NCBI GenBank assembly: GCA_027021705.1
Contig: JALUTT010000107.1
Location: 1 to 32,191, forward strand
Source: Anaerolineae bacterium
Lineage (GTDB): Bacteria > Chloroflexota > Anaerolineae > S140-20
Length of the DNA: 32,191 nt
Direction: 5' to 3'
Shown here: piece by piece, positions 20,051-28,198 of the stretch
How the letters are laid out: each line of letters begins with the position of its first letter
How positions within the stretch are numbered: position 1 is the stretch's first letter
Notes under the pieces: model-generated
Seen by the model: only the letters and a program-made list of their open reading frames with translations
Told to the model about the DNA's origin: nothing
The model's database searches: none
Made by a program: the position numbers and the translations under genes

Positions 20051-20761
20051 ATGCTGGAAGTACAAAACCTGCACACCTATTATGGTAACATCCATGCCCT
20101 GCGAGGGATCTCCCTCACCGTGGACGAAGGGGAGATCGTCACGTTGATCGGAGCCAATGGGGCTGGCAAGACGACCACGTTGAACACCATCTCCGGGCTG
20201 CTCAAGCCCCGGGAGGGGCGGGTTTTGCTGGAGGGGGAGGAGATCACCGACCTCCCTCCCCACGAGATCGTCAAGCGGGGAGTCGTCCAGGCCCCCGAAG
20301 GTCGCCGCATCTTTGCCCGGATGACGGTGATGGAGAACCTGGAGATCGCGGCCTACACCCGCACCGACAAAGAGGGCATCCGTCTGGATATGGAACGGGT
20401 CTTCGACCTCTTCCCCCGGCTGGCCGAGCGACGCAATCAGTTGGGCGGCACCCTCTCGGGAGGCGAGCAGCAGATGCTGGCCATTGGAAGGGCCCTGATG
20501 GGCAAGCCCCGGGTCCTGTTGCTGGATGAGCCCAGCATGGGGCTGGCCCCTCTCCTGGTGGAGGAGATCTTCGAGACCATTCAGCAGTTGAACAGCGAGG
20601 AGGGGGTGACCATCCTGCTGGTGGAGCAGAACGCTTTGATGGCCCTGAGCGTGGCCCATCGGGGTTACGTGCTGGAGACGGGAGAGGTGGTGCTGGAGGG
20701 TAGCGCCAAGGAACTGCGGGAGAATCCCGACGTGCGCAGGGCCTACTTGGGCGGGATCTGA
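20051..20761 (+). CDS. livF: Branched-chain amino acid ABC ATPase LivF
   Basis: GANGAGKT, PEGRRIF, LSGGEQQMLAIGRALM, LVEQN. Confidence 0.93.
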   Translation: MLEVQNLHTYYGNIHALRGISLTVDEGEIVTLIGANGAGKTTTLNTISGLLKPREGRVLLEGEEITDLPPHEIVKRGVVQAPEGRRIFARMTVMENLEIAAYTRTDKEGIRLDMERVFDLFPRLAERRNQLGGTLSGGEQQMLAIGRALMGKPRVLLLDEPSMGLAPLLVEEIFETIQQLNSEEGVTILLVEQNALMALSVAHRGYVLETGEVVLEGSAKELRENPDVRRAYLGGI

Positions 20762-20826: not shown

Positions 20827-21132
20827 TTACCCCAGATCGGCCGCCAGGTCGGTTAAGTCCCGCTCCCGCAGCATCCGGTACTTCCACTTCTGAATCAGGG
20901 GGACGATGTAAGGGAGCAGGCGGAGGCTGTAGTAGGGGGGGAGAATGGGCACGCCCAGCAGATCGCCGAAGCTGATGAGGACGAAGAGGTGCTCCAGGTC
21001 CGCCCGCTGACGGCGGAAGTGGCGGACGATTTCGAACACCGTCATCCCATAGATGAAGCCGGCCACCCACTCCCCAACGGCTCTGGCCCGCTCTCGCCAG
21101 CGGTTGATGCGGCCTGCCGGAGTTGTGGTCAT
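20827..21132 (-). CDS. Small ArsA-associated hypothetical protein (paralog B of 24613-24888)
   Basis: RBS GGAAAGGAG; shares EHLF.LI..GDLLGVPILPPYYSLRLLPY.VP....WK.RMLRE.DLTD with the 24613 ORF. Confidence 0.85.
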   Translation of the reverse strand: MTTTPAGRINRWRERARAVGEWVAGFIYGMTVFEIVRHFRRQRADLEHLFVLISFGDLLGVPILPPYYSLRLLPYIVPLIQKWKYRMLRERDLTDLAADLG

Positions 21133-21211
21133 CGCGAACTCCTTTCCGCCCTAGTGGACCCGGTGCACAGTAGATCGTGAGTGTGACGAATTGGTGGGTA
21201 TGAGGTAGAAG

Positions 21212-21868
21212 ATGTCCCTCGCTGCTCAGCGCGTCATCTGGGCCATCGCCATCCTGATGGCCCTCTGGTACGTTGGGGGGACCTGGTATAACCGCCGTCG
21301 TGGCATCCGCACGCTGACCTGGCTGCGCGAGGGCCTCCAGCGGCTAGGGGGTCGGCTAGAGATGGTGTGGATCGGTTCCGCCGCTTCGGGAGCCAAGGCG
21401 ATGGTCAGCAAGGCCAACCCGCCCTTCCGCCACCTAGAGGCTATCTTCCTGCTGGAGTCGCGGGAGATCCTTCCCCTCTGGGCGATCAACCGGCTGCGAG
21501 GCCGGCGGGATGAACTGATCATCAGGGCCCAGCTTCGCTCCTCTCGCCGAGGAGAGATCGAAGTGGTTCCGGCCGGCAGCCGGTTGGAGCGCTCGCTGCG
21601 GCGCGAAGAGCAGCCTCCCTGGGAGTGGGAGGAAGGCCCCCACGGGCTCCGCATTGCCCGCCGGGGCTCCCAGGGGAAAGCCCTCAGCCAGGCCGTCGGA
21701 GCCTTTCTCCAGGATTATGGCACCTCTCTCTACCGTCTCTCCTGGCGGCGTAGCAGGCCCCACCTCTTGCTCCACCTACGCCTGTCCGGGCTGACCGAGC
21801 GCCCGGCCAGCGATCTCTTCAGCGCCCTGCGCACAGCCCTCACCTATCCCCGTCAGGGTAGTTTGTAG
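21212..21868 (+). CDS. N-terminally membrane-anchored hypothetical protein, possibly CCDC47/DUF1682-like
   Basis: GAGG RBS; hydrophobic helix VIWAIAILMALWYVGG followed by a basic NRRR; family call by eye only. Confidence 0.7.
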   Translation: MSLAAQRVIWAIAILMALWYVGGTWYNRRRGIRTLTWLREGLQRLGGRLEMVWIGSAASGAKAMVSKANPPFRHLEAIFLLESREILPLWAINRLRGRRDELIIRAQLRSSRRGEIEVVPAGSRLERSLRREEQPPWEWEEGPHGLRIARRGSQGKALSQAVGAFLQDYGTSLYRLSWRRSRPHLLLHLRLSGLTERPASDLFSALRTALTYPRQGSL

Positions 21869-21943
21869 TCCTCGGTCCCTCCCCAAAGCCAAAAGTGTAG
21901 GAGGCCCTTTCAGGGCCGCTCCCCAGGACTGGGCACAATCGGA

Positions 21944-22435
21944 CTAGTGACAGCGCAGGTAGGGGATCGCCGCCAGCATCTCCTCGAACCCCTCCCGGGG
22001 GCATCGCCCGCTGAACTCCACCACCAGGTGTCGCTCGCTCACCGGACAGTCGAACTCCACCCGCAGGAAGGTGATGGTGTGGCGCCGGAAGAGCCCCCGT
22101 CGCCCCTCTCGCCAGCGCACCGTGGCTGGATGGCCATGGACGGTGACCTCGGTCACCTCCCCGACCGGAGCCCGGTTCCATCGCCGGGACAATGCCCCCA
22201 CCTGCAGCATCAATTCCATCGCCCAGCGGCGCTCGGCATCGAAGACCACATACCAGGCCCGGCCTGAGGCGACCCACTTCTTGCCCCCTCGCTCATGGTT
22301 GGCGATGACCTCCGGCCGCCCTACTCCGGGGGCCAACTCCCAGCCCGGCGGTAAGCCGAGCGAGAGGAATAGGGAATCGCCCAGCAGCAGGTTGCTGGCT
22401 GCGATGTCGTGGCGCACCAGATCGGTCGGCTGCAC
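21944..22435 (-). CDS. Hypothetical beta-rich protein, last gene of the arsA-like operon
   Basis: GTG 22435 after AAAGGAGA; LPPGWEL near the N-terminus, CPVSERHL, C-terminal YLRCH. Confidence 0.7.
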   Translation of the reverse strand: MQPTDLVRHDIAASNLLLGDSLFLSLGLPPGWELAPGVGRPEVIANHERGGKKWVASGRAWYVVFDAERRWAMELMLQVGALSRRWNRAPVGEVTEVTVHGHPATVRWREGRRGLFRRHTITFLRVEFDCPVSERHLVVEFSGRCPREGFEEMLAAIPYLRCH

Positions 22436-22593
22436 ATTGGTCTCCTTTGAACGGACGTTCCGATGAACTCTAAAAGGCGACCGCCGGGGAGCGTTATCCC
22501 CCGACGGCCACAGACCTCCCGCTACCACCCTGCCCCTCAGCAACGATCGGCTGTTTGATCCGACCCATTCAATCCGGTGGACGGCTTGGTTCG

Positions 22594-23574
22594 CTAGGCG
22601 AACATCCGCTCGGCGGTCTCAATGAGCATCGGCACCCCCTTCACCTCGGTGTCGAAGAGGGGGACGATGCTGCGAACCAGACCGTCGAACTCCTGCTCGA
22701 TGACCTCCATGTACTCGTCTTGCATCGCCACTCGGTTCAGCACGAACTCCGCCGCATCGGTTCCGATCTTCTCCTTGTCAATGACCATGTTGACGACCAC
22801 CCCACCCACAGGGATGCCGAAGTCGTGGAACCAGTTGATGAAGCGGCGGATGACGGCGATGGGCAGGGCCTCCGGCAGCGTGACGAAGAAGAAGGCCGTC
22901 AGTTCTGGGTCGGTCAGCAGTTCCTTGGCATGCTGCATGCGCTCTCGGAAGTTGAGGAGGTACTCCATCAGCGGGTCCTTCTCTTCTTTTTTCTTGCTGT
23001 AGGAGAGCATCTCCCGTAGGCTGCGGGCCTCCTCCCGGCTCTGCATCATCTTGTTGACCCAGAGGGAATAGACGGAGGACATCCCCAACAGACGACGGGC
23101 GTTGGCGGTAGGTGCGGTGTCGAAGACATAGACGTCATACTCGTCCTTGAACATGATGTCAATCATGTTCTCGAACATTGCCGATTCCTCGAAGGCCGGG
23201 TTCATTGTGGCCGACTCGATGAATTCGTCAGCCTTGGTGCGGATCTCGGCGAACTTGAGGAACCAGTCAATCTTCTCCCGGATCTCCTGTTTGGACTTCT
23301 CAATGGTCTCCCGGGTGTCAATTTCGTAAGCCCAGAGGTTGGGGACGCCTTCCACAGGTGTGGGGGCGCCAAAGACGTCTTGCTCCAGCATGCCGCTCAG
23401 GCTGTGGACCGGGTTGGTGGAGGCGAGGAGGGTGCGCCGGCCTCGGCGGGCGAAGCCAACGGCCGCTGCACCGGCCATCACCGTCTTGCCCACGCCCCCC
23501 TTGCCGCCGAAGAAGGTGTACTTCAACCGGGGATGTTCATCCAGGAATTGGGAGAGGGTCTTCTCGATGCGCAT
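22594..23574 (-). CDS. ArsA/Get3(TRC40)-family single-domain ATPase, subunit 2 (switch I D->N)
   Basis: GGKGGVGKT, STNPVHSL, DTAPTAN, VTLPE; no Cys. Confidence 0.9.
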   Translation of the reverse strand: MRIEKTLSQFLDEHPRLKYTFFGGKGGVGKTVMAGAAAVGFARRGRRTLLASTNPVHSLSGMLEQDVFGAPTPVEGVPNLWAYEIDTRETIEKSKQEIREKIDWFLKFAEIRTKADEFIESATMNPAFEESAMFENMIDIMFKDEYDVYVFDTAPTANARRLLGMSSVYSLWVNKMMQSREEARSLREMLSYSKKKEEKDPLMEYLLNFRERMQHAKELLTDPELTAFFFVTLPEALPIAVIRRFINWFHDFGIPVGGVVVNMVIDKEKIGTDAAEFVLNRVAMQDEYMEVIEQEFDGLVRSIVPLFDTEVKGVPMLIETAERMFA

Positions 23575-23577
23575 CGT

Positions 23578-24561
23578 TCACGCTCCGTTCCCAAACATGA
23601 CCTCGGCCATCCGCTCGATCATCGGCAGGCCGGTCACATCCCGCTCGAACTCGGGGATGTAGGCCAGCACCTGATCCCCAAAGAGCCGCTTGATCTCGGC
23701 GAGGTACTTCTGTTGCATCTCGTACCGGTTGCGCAGGTAGGCCGGAATATTGGGCTGCTGCATCAGGGAGTCGGGTAGCACCCGGTTGACGATGTAGCCG
23801 CTGAGGGGCACCTGATACTTGGCGAAGAGCCCTGCGGCCTTTTGCGTATCTATCAAGATCATCTCCTCGGGCACCAGGACGAAGAAGAAAGCTGTCCGTT
23901 CCCGATCGGTCAAGATGCTGGAGGAGGTGTTGATGCGGTGCTTGATGTACTGGAGTTCTTTGAGGATCAGGTCCTCTTGGAGCTCCTTGTCCCGGGCGTA
24001 GCGGGCTGCCATCTCCTCGTATTCCCGCATCTCCTCACGCAAGGCTGTGATCTTGGTGATCCATTCGTCGTAGACACTGGCCATGCTCAGGTAGTAGAGG
24101 GCGTGGCCCAGCGGGACCAGGTCGTAGATGTAGTAGTCGTACTCGCCGGCCACCACGATGTCCACGACCTGATCGAAGATGGCGCTCTCCTCCATCGCGG
24201 GCTCTGCCGCCGCAGCCCGGATGTAGCTTTCGATCTCATCGGGAATCTCGTCCATCCCGTACATATCGCGGATCTTCTGGCGGATTTCCTCCTGGTACTC
24301 TCGGATCCGCTGGTCGGCATCAATCTCCTGAGCGAAGAGATTAGGGATGATTTCAACGGCCCCCTTGCCGTAGATGTCCCGCTCGAAGATGTCAGAGAGC
24401 GAAGCCTGGGGGTCCACGGAGAAGACCAGCACTTTATGGCCCTGTTGAGCCAGGTAGTAGGCCGTGGCGGCGGAGAAGGTCGTCTTGCCCAGCCCTCCCT
24501 TACCGCCAAACATAATGTAGCGTCGTTCAGGGTTTTCCTCGAAAATGCGCTTGAGCGACAT
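23578..24561 (-). CDS. ArsA/Get3(TRC40)-family single-domain ATPase, subunit 1 (deviant switch II)
   Basis: GGKGGLGKTT, SVDPQASL, DLVPLGH, VLVPE, IVNRV; no Cys. Confidence 0.9.
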   Translation of the reverse strand: MSLKRIFEENPERRYIMFGGKGGLGKTTFSAATAYYLAQQGHKVLVFSVDPQASLSDIFERDIYGKGAVEIIPNLFAQEIDADQRIREYQEEIRQKIRDMYGMDEIPDEIESYIRAAAAEPAMEESAIFDQVVDIVVAGEYDYYIYDLVPLGHALYYLSMASVYDEWITKITALREEMREYEEMAARYARDKELQEDLILKELQYIKHRINTSSSILTDRERTAFFFVLVPEEMILIDTQKAAGLFAKYQVPLSGYIVNRVLPDSLMQQPNIPAYLRNRYEMQQKYLAEIKRLFGDQVLAYIPEFERDVTGLPMIERMAEVMFGNGA

Positions 24562-24612
24562 TGCTTGCTCCTCGTTTGATGGCTTGTCTCAAGAATGGGG
24601 GTCCAGGCGGGA

Positions 24613-24888
24613 CTAAGCCAGAGCGTCGGTCAAGTCTTTCTCGCGCAGCATGCGCCGTTTCCAGGTGGCGATCTGGGGCACCACGTAGGGGAGCAGACGC
24701 AGGGAGTAGTAGGGCGGCAGGATGGGCACACCTAGCAGGTCGCCCATCGTGATGAGGATGAAAAGATGTTCCATACTTCCCCGCGTCTTCAGGGCCTGGC
24801 GGGTCATCTCGTGTGCTGCCATGCCGTAGATGAGGTCTTGAACGGATCGTTTGGCCCGTTCCCAGAGGCTGAGCTTCTCTTCGGTCAT
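24613..24888 (-). CDS. Small ArsA-associated hypothetical protein (paralog A), 91 aa
   Basis: ATG 24888 after AAAAGGAGG; similarity to the 20827 ORF starts only downstream of this ATG. Confidence 0.85.
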   Translation of the reverse strand: MTEEKLSLWERAKRSVQDLIYGMAAHEMTRQALKTRGSMEHLFILITMGDLLGVPILPPYYSLRLLPYVVPQIATWKRRMLREKDLTDALA

Positions 24889-25076
24889 ACGGTCTCTTCC
24901 CTCCTTTTCACAGATCTGTTGCAGTATTCGGGAGAGGGGGAAACAGATCTTGAACGATCGGCGAACCGCTACCGGCAACGGACGTTGGTACCGTTGCCCT
25001 TCTGTCCAAGTCGTTACGCAGGATCCTTTGATCACCGAGGTGCCTTGCTGACCTTCCAGGGGCGGGGGGGCCGTGC

Positions 25077-25100
25077 AAAAAGCGGGGTTCGCCAACCCGC
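25077..25100 (-). terminator. Probable terminator of the pst-phoU operon
   Basis: Minus strand GCGGGTT-ggcg-AACCCCGC-TTTTT, 30 bp after the phoU stop. Confidence 0.6.
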
Positions 25101-25105
25101 ATTGA

Positions 25106-25134
25106 ATTATACTCCAAGGTTATGGTTCGGTCAA
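25106..25134 (-). promoter_or_regulatory. sigma70-type promoter pointing toward the arsA-like operon
   Basis: TTGACC(25134-25129)-17-TATAAT(25111-25106); the -35 overlaps the phoU stop codon. Confidence 0.6.
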
Positions 25135-25802
25135 ACCTCTTCCTCGTCCACGTCCATCTCGATCATCTCGCCCGTGACGGTGAAGATCACCCGTTCACAG
25201 ATGTTGGTCACCCGGTCGGCGGTGCGCTCCAGGTTGTGAGCCGCCCACAGGAGATAGTTGGCCTGTTCGATGGTGTGGGGGTCGGCCATGATGAAGGTCA
25301 TCAGCTCCCGATAGACCTGGTTGTAGAGGGCATCCACCTCGTCATCCTCTTCGGGAATGGCCTGGGCCAACTCCACGTCCCGCCGGATAAACGCCTCCAA
25401 CGCCCGGTGCAGCATATCCCGTGCCTTCTCCGCCATCCGGGGAATGTCAATGAGCGGCTTGATCAACGGCTCGTCCCCGATCATCAGGTTGATCTTGGCG
25501 ATGCCCTTCGCGTAGTCGCCCATCCGTTCCAGTTCGGTGACGATCTCCAACACCGCCGCCAGAGTGCGCAGGTCGCTGGCCATCGGCTGTTGGGTGGCGA
25601 TCAAGGTTAGCGCCTGGGCCTCCAGGGCGAAGCGCTTTTCATTAATTTGCCGATCGTTGGCGATGATCCGGCGCGAGGCCTCCATATCCCGCCGCTTGAG
25701 GCTGTCCACCGAGGCGGTCAGCGCCTCTTCGACCATGCTCCCTAGGACCAACACCTCTTCCTGCAACCGCTGTAGGTCCTGCTCGAAAGCTTTACGGATC
25801 AT
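25131..25802 (-). CDS. phoU: Phosphate signalling protein PhoU
   Basis: QQPMASDLR, ELERMGDYAKGIA, DDEVD, NLERTADRVTNICE. Confidence 0.96.
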   Translation of the reverse strand: MIRKAFEQDLQRLQEEVLVLGSMVEEALTASVDSLKRRDMEASRRIIANDRQINEKRFALEAQALTLIATQQPMASDLRTLAAVLEIVTELERMGDYAKGIAKINLMIGDEPLIKPLIDIPRMAEKARDMLHRALEAFIRRDVELAQAIPEEDDEVDALYNQVYRELMTFIMADPHTIEQANYLLWAAHNLERTADRVTNICERVIFTVTGEMIEMDVDEEEV

Positions 25803-26250
25803 CCGTCCCCTCCTCTCCCACAGAACGCTCGAACTGGTCCAGATAGCTCAGGATGCGCCGGCGCAGACCATCCCGCACCTCTCGGAAGACGGCCAGCCGC
25901 TGGGCCTCGCTGCCCGTCGCCGCCGCCGGGTCCGGGAAGCCGATGTGCACCCGCCGGCCGCGCCCCAGCCAGACGGGGCAGTTCCGGTCGGCGTCGTCGC
26001 AGACGGTGATGACCAGGTCGAACTGGGCATCCCGGAACTCGTCCACCGACTTGGAGCGCTGGGTGCCGATCTCCACCCCCAGCTCGGCCATCGCCCGTAT
26101 GGCCAGGGGGTGGACGTAGCCGGCCGGTTTCGTGCCTGCCGAGTGGGCCTCCCACCGGTCGCCTCGGAAGTGGTTGACCAGCCCCTCGGCCATCTGGCTC
26201 CGGGCCGAGTTGCCGGTGCAGAGGAAGAGCACACGCCCCTTGCGGCTCAT
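25792..26250 (-). CDS. arsC: Thioredoxin-type arsenate reductase (LMW-PTP fold)
   Basis: [27 protein letters not shown] (resolving Cys pair), FPDPA, FREVRD. Confidence 0.9.
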
Positions 26251-27017
26251 CCGAACCTTCCCGTGATGTAGTCTTCGGTGCGCTTATCCTTGGGATTGGT
26301 GAAGATCTGGTCGGTCGGCCCGTACTCGACCAGGACGCCGGCCCGGTCCTCGCCCATCATCAGGAAGGCGGTGTAATCGGAGACCCGGGCGGCCTGCTGC
26401 ATGTTGTGGGTCACGACGACGATGGTGTAGGTCTGGGCCAGCTCCCGCATCAGGTCCTCGATGCGCAGGGTGGCGATGGGGTCCAGGGCGGAGGCCGGCT
26501 CGTCCATCAGGAGGACCTCCGGCTCCACGGCCAGGGCCCGGGCGATGCAGAGCCGTTGTTGCTGACCGCCGGAGAGGGCGGTGCCCGGCTCGTGCAGCTT
26601 GTCCTTGACCTCGTCCCAGAGGGCCGCCTGGCGCAGGGAGCGTTCCACCCGCTCTTCCAGGTCGGGCACACGCCCCCAGTGGCCAAGCCGCAGCCCCGCC
26701 GCCACGTTGTCGAAGATGGACATCGTGGGGAAGGGGTTGGGGCGCTGAAAGACCATCCCCACCCGGCGTCGGACCTGCACCGGGTCCACCTCCGGGGCGT
26801 AGATGTCCTCCCCGTCCAGGAGCACCCGCCCGCGCATCCAGGCCCCCCGCACTTCCTCGTGCATCCGGTTCAGGCAGCGCAGGAGGGTGGACTTGCCCGA
26901 CCCCGAGGGGCCGATGATGGCGGTGACCTTGTTGGGCACGATGGTGAGGGTGATGTCGCGGATGGCAGTGAACCCGCCGAACCCGGCGCTGAGGTTCTCG
27001 ATGGACATTCCTCGCAT
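26247..27017 (-). CDS. pstB: Phosphate ABC transporter ATPase PstB
   Basis: [45 protein letters not shown] 27017 overlaps the upstream stop (TGATG). Confidence 0.96.
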
Positions 27018-28198
27018 CAGAAGCTCCCCTTGCGGTGGCGAGAAGGCAGCACTACGGTGAAGCGCACCCGGTTCGCGTCGAAGCGGGGCGGTGCGGACCC
27101 CAACGCCTCCATCTCCCGGCGGATGCGGATCAAGCCTCGGCCCACTTCCTCCATGTAGCCCCACTCCCGGAGCACCCGGGCGATGATCGGATTGCGGGGG
27201 TAGGAGGCCCCGCCCCGTTGGGTGATCTCCTCCAGCGTCAGGTCGGGCGGAAGCCCCCCTGGGTTGGTGACCTCCAGCCGGTCGGTGAAGATGCGCAACA
27301 GGATGCGCCCGGTGCTGCTGTAATCCCGATGAGCCACGGCGTTGGTCAACACCTCCCGGACGGCTCCCAGGGGATACTCCGGCAGGTCGCGTCGGCGGGC
27401 CGACGTATCCTCCTCGAAGAGGGCCGCGACGCGCATGTTGCGCCGCACGAAGGCCAGGGCCTGCTCGATGAGCCGGTCTGCCGTGCCCTCCAGGTCCGCC
27501 CGGTCTACGATGGGATCCGTTAACTCGGTGCCGTGGATCCGTACAGCGCCCAGCCCCCATTGGGGGCGCTCTCGCTGTGGGTCCAACCCGAACAGGATGA
27601 GGCCGGCCACGGTGGGGACCACGCGCCCGGCCTCCCGCCGGGCCAACCCCCAACTCACGGCCACGTCCGAAGGGCGCAGGCCGTTGATCTGAATCGCCCC
27701 CGGTGCACGCCGTTCGATGTATGCTTGGAGTCGGGCCAGGTTCAGGTCCTCCAGGCTGGATTCGGCCACCGGCGTGCGCTCGTACTCGGTGTAGCTGCTC
27801 TCCAGACTCAGGCGTCGGAGTTCATCGGGTCGGGCACGCCGGGTCGTGGCGCCGGCCCGCACGTAGCAGATGTCGTTGGCCGTGTAGGGCTTCTGGGTTC
27901 CCTCCGGCACGCGGATGAGGAGGAGCGTTTTTCCCTCGCCGGTGACGACCTCGGTCTGGGGTGTCAGGGCCGGCTTGATGCCGGTGCGGCAAAGGCCCAT
28001 CACCCGGTCGGCGATCCGACGGGGGTCGTCCACGCCCACCGGGGTTCCATCGTCTGCCACACCGACGAGGATCACCCCGCCGCTGCCGTTGGCGAAGGCG
28101 ACGATCTCCCGGGCGATGGCCGTCGTGAAGTCCTCTTTGAACTCGACCGTTGGCCCTTCGCCTTGGTCAATGAGGTGGCGGACCTCCGAGCTCTTCAT
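27017..28198 (-). CDS. Schlafen/AlbA_2 + HATPase_c_4 domain protein
   Basis: [68 protein letters not shown]. Confidence 0.88.

Follow-up and report, generated by a model that had tools for sequence, protein, structure and literature searches.

The stretch of DNA considered here, termed the window throughout, comprises 32,191 nucleotides of an Anaerolineae bacterium of the phylum Chloroflexota (assembly GCA_027021705.1, contig JALUTT010000107.1), and the subject of the present analysis is a six-gene locus within it that encodes a pair of Get3-like ATPases and four further proteins (Table 1). On the minus strand, genes for a small protein (S1) of the type named CstX in earlier work (PMC2963123), two single-domain ATPases of the Get3/ArsA family (A1 and A2) and a protein with a Cys-His terminus (U199) follow one another, with S1 lying 51 nt upstream of A1 and A1 separated from A2 by 3 nt. 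The plus-strand gene for U218, a membrane-anchored protein, is convergent with these four genes, and the gene for a second CstX-type protein (S2), on the minus strand, is divergent from U218. All six open reading frames (ORFs) had been delineated in an initial annotation of this DNA and are present where it placed them; that annotation regarded them as a candidate new system for membrane-protein targeting, in which the ATPases would act with small hydrophobic adaptors or clients and a membrane receptor.

Table 1. Features of the six-gene locus and its upstream region in the 32,191-nt window (AF2, AlphaFold2).
Feature	Coordinates	Strand	Basis
S1, CstX-type small protein, ATPase-proximal paralog	24613-24888	-	ORF, 91 aa
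A1, single-domain Get3/ArsA-family ATPase, switch I Asp kept	23578-24561	-	ORF, 327 aa; PF02374, TIGR00345
A2, single-domain Get3/ArsA-family ATPase, Asn at switch I catalytic position	22594-23574	-	ORF, 326 aa; PF02374, TIGR00345
U199, Cys-His-ended protein	listed ORF 21944-22543 (TTG 22543); probable 21944-22435 (GTG 22435), 163 aa	-	
U218, membrane-anchored, CCDC47 fold	21212-21868	+	ORF, 218 aa; AF2 model
S2, CstX-type small protein, distal paralog	20827-21132	-	ORF, 101 aa
Sigma-70-like promoter candidate ahead of S1	25106-25134	-	TTGACC-17-TATAAT, 11/12 matches

The gene set recurs in other genomes. Neighborhoods were compared by tblastn with the proteins of the window in 100 loci, 20 of which surround S-family matches in 14 related genomes, while the other 80 were obtained by scanning a single genome of each species and are the best of at least 616 matches to a query alignment of nine closer sequences, which biases them toward close relatives of S1. 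Where a locus contained enough flanking sequence ("with room"), A1 was found within 2 kb downstream of the anchoring S gene in 80 of 84 cases, the four misses being extra S copies fetched on purpose, and A1 and A2 were both present in 70 of 74. At least two S genes occur in 77 of the 100 loci, and 74 contain cstA, the gene for the nutrient transporter CstA; of the 77 loci with room, 57 have cstA upstream in the same orientation. U218 is encoded in 44/100 loci and U199 in 12/100; at the position of U199, after A2, 36/100 loci hold a membrane protein with tetratricopeptide repeat (TPR)-like repeats (e.g., L101 10350-11030; L094 10406-10939). The usual order is cstA, S2-type, S1-type, A1, A2 and then the TPR-like gene or U199, with U218 nearby. 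The order seen in the window, S1-A1-A2-U199-U218 (reversed)-S2, recurs in nine loci, with cstA upstream in eight of them; the ninth (L056) starts only 290 nt before S1. With this recurrence in 100 related loci, the arrangement is far beyond chance, and the expectation that the families would co-occur in other genomes is borne out. In the closest relatives of the same order, one or two small ORFs with thioredoxin-like patches, recognized by eye, were seen between cstA and S1 (L057 7366-7791; L058 6683-7093 and 7107-7475; L085 6848-7336 and 7597-7962); these are missing from the window.

The association with CstA extends from gene neighborhoods to whole genomes. Among 41 genomes (that of the window and 40 related ones), an S gene and CstA occur together in 19, an S gene alone in one, CstA alone in one and neither in 20; these genomes are kin, and the co-occurrence is to be read as a pattern and not as a statistical test. 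CstA is accordingly encoded in 19 of the 20 S-bearing genomes, the single S-only genome being 75% complete, and the genome with CstA only has A2-U199-U218 at a contig end. No cstA is found in the window itself, a fact that the initial annotation had treated as incidental; yet cstA is the main conserved neighbor of the module and its phyletic partner. The only cstA in the genome of the window is on another contig (C3:42316-43881), where neither an S gene nor a gene for an ATPase or U218 adjoins it, and in several relatives cstA and the module likewise lie on different contigs. The module therefore seems to need CstA, not linkage to cstA, and it probably works with CstA in trans. Because cstA is present in 74/100 loci and in 19/20 S-bearing genomes, a CstA-specific role is likelier than general membrane-protein targeting.

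An association of this kind has been described before. Castillo and Saier (2010) reported operons of cstA, cstX and an arsA homologue in 26 bacteria and archaea, in which the gene for CstX (about 90 aa) adjoins genes for ArsA homologues with a single domain and about 330 aa, without any ars genes; adjacent ATPase pairs were noted in Pyrobaculum arsenaticum and Symbiobacterium thermophilum, paired CstX paralogs in P. arsenaticum, and a single-transmembrane-segment (TMS) protein of about 210 aa, CstY, in five archaea only (PMC2963123). The association, the adjacent ATPases and the paired CstX paralogs being already in that account, the system cannot be called new. The locus of the window has the CstX-sized protein beside the ATPase (S1 adjoining A1) and the single-domain ATPases, one PF02374 domain each, without conserved ars genes, whereas cstA, part of the operon in relatives, is not in the window. 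U218 is probably the counterpart of CstY, on the grounds of its similar size, its one N-terminal helix and its gene context; CstY was reported from archaea, and U218 is bacterial. It is highly probable that the locus belongs to the cstX-arsA module, and it is a variant of the Castillo-Saier arrangement in which cstX and arsA are both duplicated, cstA is unlinked and U199 is carried. The published text states that cstX was never found without cstA (PMC2963123); at the operon level, the window departs from this. As far as our searches of the literature go, three features have not been published: the likeness of the membrane partner's fold to CCDC47, the constant Asp-to-Asn replacement by which the second ATPase would have lost its active site, and the family of Cys-His-ended proteins to which U199 belongs. 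The supplements of 2010 might list further CstY or paired cases.

A1 and A2 share 36% identity (E 1e-61), match PF02374 (246 and 226 bits) and exceed the 135-bit cut-off of TIGR00345 (GET3_arsA_TRC40; 237 and 222 bits). Their best full-length solved relatives are archaeal Get3 structures (3ug6/3ug7 and 3zq6), with E-values for A1 of 8e-65 (3ug6) and 1e-58 (3zq6) against 2e-33 for E. coli ArsA (1f48), and for A2 of 5e-54 and 7e-51. In common with archaeal Get3 they have the deviant Walker A motif GGKGGxGKT, conserved here as GGKGGLGKT and GGKGGVGKT, and a comparable insert region, which the alignment of A1 with 3ug6 spans with only a 4-residue gap. Together with the Met content, this alignment across the insert is an indirect sign of a putative hydrophobic groove for a client transmembrane helix. 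Unlike archaeal Get3, they are two diverged paralogs, with Asn at switch I in A2 and alterations in switch II in both, and are encoded with CstX-type and CCDC47-fold partners. Neither contains a single cysteine, as had been noted from the outset (Met accounts for 4.3% of A1 and 5.5% of A2), and hence the CxxC zinc site of eukaryotic Get3 is absent. E. coli ArsA belongs to the same superfamily but has two fused domains, whereas A1 and A2 are single-domain proteins without metalloid-binding Cys, and their scores with the ArsA equivalog TIGR04291 (98.5 and 105.7 bits) are far from its cut-off of 650. Within the same superfamily, BagA and BagB of Mycobacterium tuberculosis form a bacterial pair of interacting Get3-like ATPases, but A1 and A2 score far below the corresponding equivalog cut-offs (BagA NF053622, 43 and 46 bits against 400; BagB NF053621, 38.5 and 39.5 bits against 521), and the same is true for the NosAFP equivalog. 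Judged by sequence, the ATPases are closest to archaeal Get3 and not to ArsA, in keeping with their first annotation as Get3-like proteins rather than arsenite-pump ATPases.

The two ATP sites appear to have diverged in a consistent manner. At least 98% of 86 A1 orthologs retain the motifs SVDPQASL and YDLVPLGH, and at least 98% of 75 A2 orthologs retain STNPVHSL and DTAPTAN. At switch I, D50 of A1 is invariant in 40 aligned rows and N54 of A2 in 39, and both align with the switch I Asp of 3ug6, a position that we take, from this alignment, to correspond to D57 of the yeast protein. In Get3, the switch I Asp (yeast D57) is described as positioning the attacking water (PMC10248533). Given Asn in A2 in place of the water-activating Asp, we infer that A1 and A2 would form a heterodimer in which ATP is hydrolyzed at the A1 site and only bound at the A2 site. 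A complex prediction for A1, A2 and S1 with two ATP, run without controls, returned scores of 0.32, 0.10 and 0.22 against a mark of 0.32 and weighs neither way on binding. A third ArsA/Get3-family gene of the same genome (G000:C48:29523-30425, locus L013; PF02374 E 1e-90, 484-aa open frame) is unlinked to S genes and may be a Get3d-type ATPase that carries an additional domain at its C-terminus.

S1 and S2 are 56% identical (E 9e-37). The small protein has 5302 homologs in a set of 5.8 billion proteins, the best being 80-96% identical, and 395 representative clusters at 50% identity; the homologs carry a precomputed PF25952 label, a family known here as a label alone. The initial annotation had noted a likeness to cory-CC-star proteins, and this is real but below threshold: the core of the NF041419 model is matched by S1 and S2 at 36 and 34 bits against a cut-off of 80, and by 75 of the 76 S-family members tested, again below cut-off. 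A C-terminal Cys-Cys, the feature that the name cory-CC-star presumably denotes, is lacking; S1 and S2 contain no Cys at all, and 0/150 representatives end in CC. No paper under the name cory-CC-star was found in the literature searched. An AF2 model of S1 built from a 76-sequence alignment (predicted local distance difference test score, pLDDT, 80; predicted template modeling score, pTM, 0.45) is a two-helix hairpin with helices at residues 2-52 and 59-81 and a loop at 53-58, and in this model the hydrophobic stretch sits at or around the hairpin turn, approximately 20 residues from the C-terminus. The tip holds invariant G49, G53 and P55 and near-invariant D50 and R64. Of the "small hydrophobic" paralogs first annotated, the small size and the paralogy stand, whereas the hydrophobicity is borderline (Kyte-Doolittle 19-residue maximum of 1.6-1.7) and the stretch concerned contains conserved Gly, Asp and Pro. 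The arms of the modeled hairpin look too short for a full membrane span, and S may be monotopic or plugged into a partner.

A quick tree was built from 175 distinct S sequences; the classification as A1-adjacent or distal changes only three times on it, and S1 and S2 consequently look like an old duplication kept in fixed order. The genome of the window has a third, more distant S-family gene (L012 7698-7994; G000:C5:35742-35945, plus strand) with no Get3-like ATPase nearby, flanked on one side by genes for an ArsR-type regulator and a heavy-metal P-type ATPase and on the other by a MacB-like ABC transporter; its product ends in KHIGH, and a subgroup of the family representatives ends in HLHG[VLI]. 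One representative, P0121 (163 aa), contains two S-family stretches in one chain, a fused tandem pair. S1-type proteins 76-91% identical to that of the window were also found in L062, L065, L066, L068, L106, L111, L118, L120, L122, L125 and L130, from records titled Methylomirabilota, Burkholderiales, Desulfobacterales and Acetobacteraceae, and such identity across phylum labels reflects extreme constraint, gene transfer or mis-binned contigs.

For U218, an AF2 model from a 42-homolog alignment (pLDDT 95, pTM 0.89) consists of a long, hydrophobic N-terminal helix followed by an alpha/beta domain. Foldseek matched this model to 7tm3_4, 9i78_4 and 6w6l_7 with a probability of 1.00 (E 8e-8 to 1e-4; nothing else below 0.04), and VIA-align gave Z-scores of 15.9, 13.7 and 10.0 over 213, 207 and 181 aligned residues, followed by mycobacterial TtfA at 9.6 and the next, unrelated row at 6.8. 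In the top VIA-align match, residues 2-218 of U218 lie on chain residues 135-400 with a root-mean-square deviation of 3.2 A, the TM helix included, and the ESM Atlas independently placed U218 with a PF07946 (CCDC47) cluster at a TM-score of 0.77. Entry 7TM3 is reported to hold CCDC47 (PMC9816642), and the matched chains are identified as CCDC47 from the Atlas label, the contents of this entry and the residue numbers, not from a chain name. The "CCDC47-like" designation in the initial annotation is thereby substantiated at the level of the fold. U218 has in common with CCDC47 of the eukaryotic PAT complex and multipass translocon (7TM3, 6W6L, 9I78) the N-terminal membrane helix and the same alpha/beta domain but has no sequence-level match to it: no Pfam family was found at E <=0.1, a profile of the 42 homologs retrieved no CCDC47 chain from the PDB sequences at E <=10 and only chance-level matches, and among the 951 relatives of this profile in 5.8 billion proteins the 120 listed were all unnamed or "hypothetical protein" and lacked a Pfam label. 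The long C-terminal extension of CCDC47 appears to be absent from U218, which ends with the domain at residue 218 (the matched chain range stops at 400), and no Asterix-like partner of U218 was identified, Asterix being the partner of CCDC47. The relationship to TtfA (6t84) covers 151 aligned residues and concerns a different transporter family; TtfA is a membrane-anchored accessory or transport factor of the large transporter MmpL3, and we know of no ATPase partner for it. Searches turned up no paper in which CCDC47 or DUF1682 is connected with bacteria or with TtfA. The function of U218 is not derivable from its fold.

The listed ORF of U199 is probably over-called. As GTG 22435 lies 6 nt behind an AAGGAG and is where orthologs begin to align, it is probably the true start. 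An alignment of 14 orthologs shows no variation at H138, C166, C198 and H199 and almost none at H45 (numbering of the listed ORF), such that the family ends in an invariant Cys-His, and these conserved residues may form a redox or metal-binding site. U199 matched no family in Pfam or NCBIfam. In two genomes from other families of the class, A2 or an ATPase fragment, U199 and U218 were seen together at contig ends at 33-48% identity (L135 6036-8266; L137 24-1441), which implies that the pairing of U199 and U218 is older than the 12/100 count would indicate.

These observations allow a model to be put forward tentatively, as a reading that falls somewhat short of probable when taken whole with its mechanism. 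This model proposes that the locus is a cstA-unlinked copy of a CstA accessory module, consisting of two CstX-type proteins, two Get3-like ATPases, a CstY-like anchor of CCDC47 fold (U218) and the lineage-restricted Cys/His protein U199. A1 and A2 would form an asymmetric dimer of the Get3 type, hydrolyzing ATP at the A1 site only, and would cycle at the membrane, with U218 and the S1/S2 hairpins providing a platform. In this position, the dimer may hold the hydrophobic tips of the CstX hairpins and help to assemble or stabilize CstA, a large polytopic protein, and the module would thus be a dedicated Get3-like biogenesis and assembly aid for CstA. The conserved gene set with its fixed order, the coupling to CstA, the folds that resemble Get3 and CCDC47 and the fixed difference between the ATP sites together suggest an asymmetric membrane clamp. 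That the action on CstA is one of assembly or chaperoning rather than energizing is, taken by itself, possible but less than probable.

The initial annotation had favored a general targeting pathway, in which the heterodimer would capture the hydrophobic segments of many membrane proteins independently of CstA and U218 would serve as the receptor. Much that was said for it has stood: the families do co-occur, the ATPases are Get3-like and free of Cys, U218 has the CCDC47 fold, and in the window the module does not adjoin cstA. Further, it has been suggested that bacterial Get3 homologues containing the TRC40 insert may act in targeting, although, in the same work, the number of tail-anchored proteins was uncorrelated with the presence of such homologues (PMC6593721). 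However, S without CstA was found in only one of 41 genomes, and that one is 75% complete, and half of the related genomes are without the module, which would not be expected of a housekeeping pathway. A general role is less likely than a CstA-specific one, and we regard it as quite improbable.

The main rival to dedicated assembly is an energizing or regulatory role of the ArsAB kind, in which the A1/A2 dimer would dock on CstA by way of CstX and couple ATP binding or hydrolysis to transport or gating, such that a secondary carrier becomes ATP-assisted or ATP-gated, with U218 as a stabilizing transport factor. Several features of the module suit this role: the position of cstA upstream on the same strand (57/77), the phyletic coupling (19/20), the resemblance of U218 to the MmpL3 transport factor TtfA (Z 9.6) and the pairing of one degenerate with one competent ATP site, which is a common design of regulated transport ATPases. 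It was also the proposal of Castillo and Saier, who argued from co-clustering and from parallel trees of CstA, CstX and the ArsA homologue, with ArsA-ArsB as a precedent in the same ATPase family (PMC2963123). However, A1 and A2 are nearer to archaeal Get3 than to ArsA, and in this genome, as in several relatives, the module persists apart from cstA, an arrangement less common among the subunits of an obligate pump. To our knowledge, there is also no precedent for ATP-driven uptake through an ArsA-type partner, and energizing of CstA appears somewhat unlikely.

A number of points weigh against the model of CstA assembly preferred here, some of them in favor of the energizer. In the 2010 proposal, the ATPase energizes CstA and CstX is the linker (PMC2963123). 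One locus (L051) contains a cstA-S pair without ATPases, which suggests that S is a lasting subunit of CstA rather than a transient client. S1 is very strongly conserved, above the ATPases (75-92% identity across the 80 loci from other assemblies, compared with 65-84%), and this fits a subunit with multiple partners. With its short arms and its conserved Asp and Arg, S may not be embedded in the membrane at all. U218 was found in 15/41 genomes, 11 of which also have S, and nine S genomes are without a U218 match; it is not obligate. The CCDC47 fold, being present in TtfA as well, is not specific to biogenesis. Finally, the neighborhood counts describe the close relatives of S1, picked by their likeness to it, and 16 of the 80 scan records are titled as non-Chloroflexota (including Methylomirabilota, Burkholderiales, Desulfobacterales, Armatimonadota and Zixibacteria), being metagenome bins of which some labels are possibly wrong.

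The surroundings of the locus raise a further possibility, that the two ATPases act with the neighboring pst, arsC and phoU genes in the handling of arsenite or arsenate. Upstream on the minus strand lie pstS, pstA, a gene for a 393-aa protein, pstB, an ArsC-family gene (25792-26250, approximately 900 nt from S1; TIGR02691, 125 bits against a cut-off of 174) and phoU, and the ATPases do match ArsA models weakly. The initial annotation was correct that the window has no ArsB or Acr3 gene but made no mention of the ArsC-family gene. Against such a function stand the lack of Cys in both ATPases, their scores with the ArsA equivalog and the absence of an Acr3 match from the 94.9%-complete genome, in which a single 32-bit match to the ArsB family lies on another contig (C33), and a promoter-like site separates phoU from the module. 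The pst/arsC neighborhood is not conserved, with arsC in 1/100 loci and a pstB-like gene in 1/100, and the phosphate/arsenic link was rejected; we consider it highly improbable. The ArsC-family gene itself, located between pstB and phoU, encodes a low-molecular-weight phosphatase, and a 61%-identical gene occurs in L051 (4128-4544), 1.6 kb upstream of the cstA-S pair. The 393-aa gene (27017-28198, minus strand), between pstA and pstB, has no NCBIfam match, and relatives 35-36% identical in L044 and L125 are far from the module. The promoter candidate lies inside the 242-nt gap between phoU and S1 and is no more than a consensus match in a plausible place, one site having been found where 1.0 was expected by chance; the 247 nt upstream of S1 that include it (24889-25135) had a nucleotide-level match in none of the other 100 loci. 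No Rfam family was matched in the window. Downstream of the module, a Liv-type ABC operon on the opposite strand ends at 20761.

The functions of prokaryotic Get3 homologues have been described as unclear (PMC6593721), and the Get3-like ATPases of this locus come with defined, co-inherited partners and with one obvious candidate client or partner, CstA. That a protein of CCDC47 fold is encoded in the same bacterial operon as Get3-like ATPases also bears on the origin of parts of the endoplasmic reticulum (ER) multipass translocon. A stronger version of the assembly model, which we consider unlikely, is that the module is a prokaryotic, single-client counterpart of the eukaryotic machinery for membrane-protein biogenesis, in which a Get3 heterodimer with one dead site, a scaffold of CCDC47 fold and hairpins of approximately 10 kDa, Asterix- or receptor-like, insert or assemble CstA. 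If this were true, Get3-like ATPases and CCDC47-like scaffolds would have been partners before eukaryotes arose, and this partnership could be studied in bacteria. If the ATPases instead drive or gate CstA, the module would join ArsAB as the second case in which an ATPase of this family acts on a secondary carrier.

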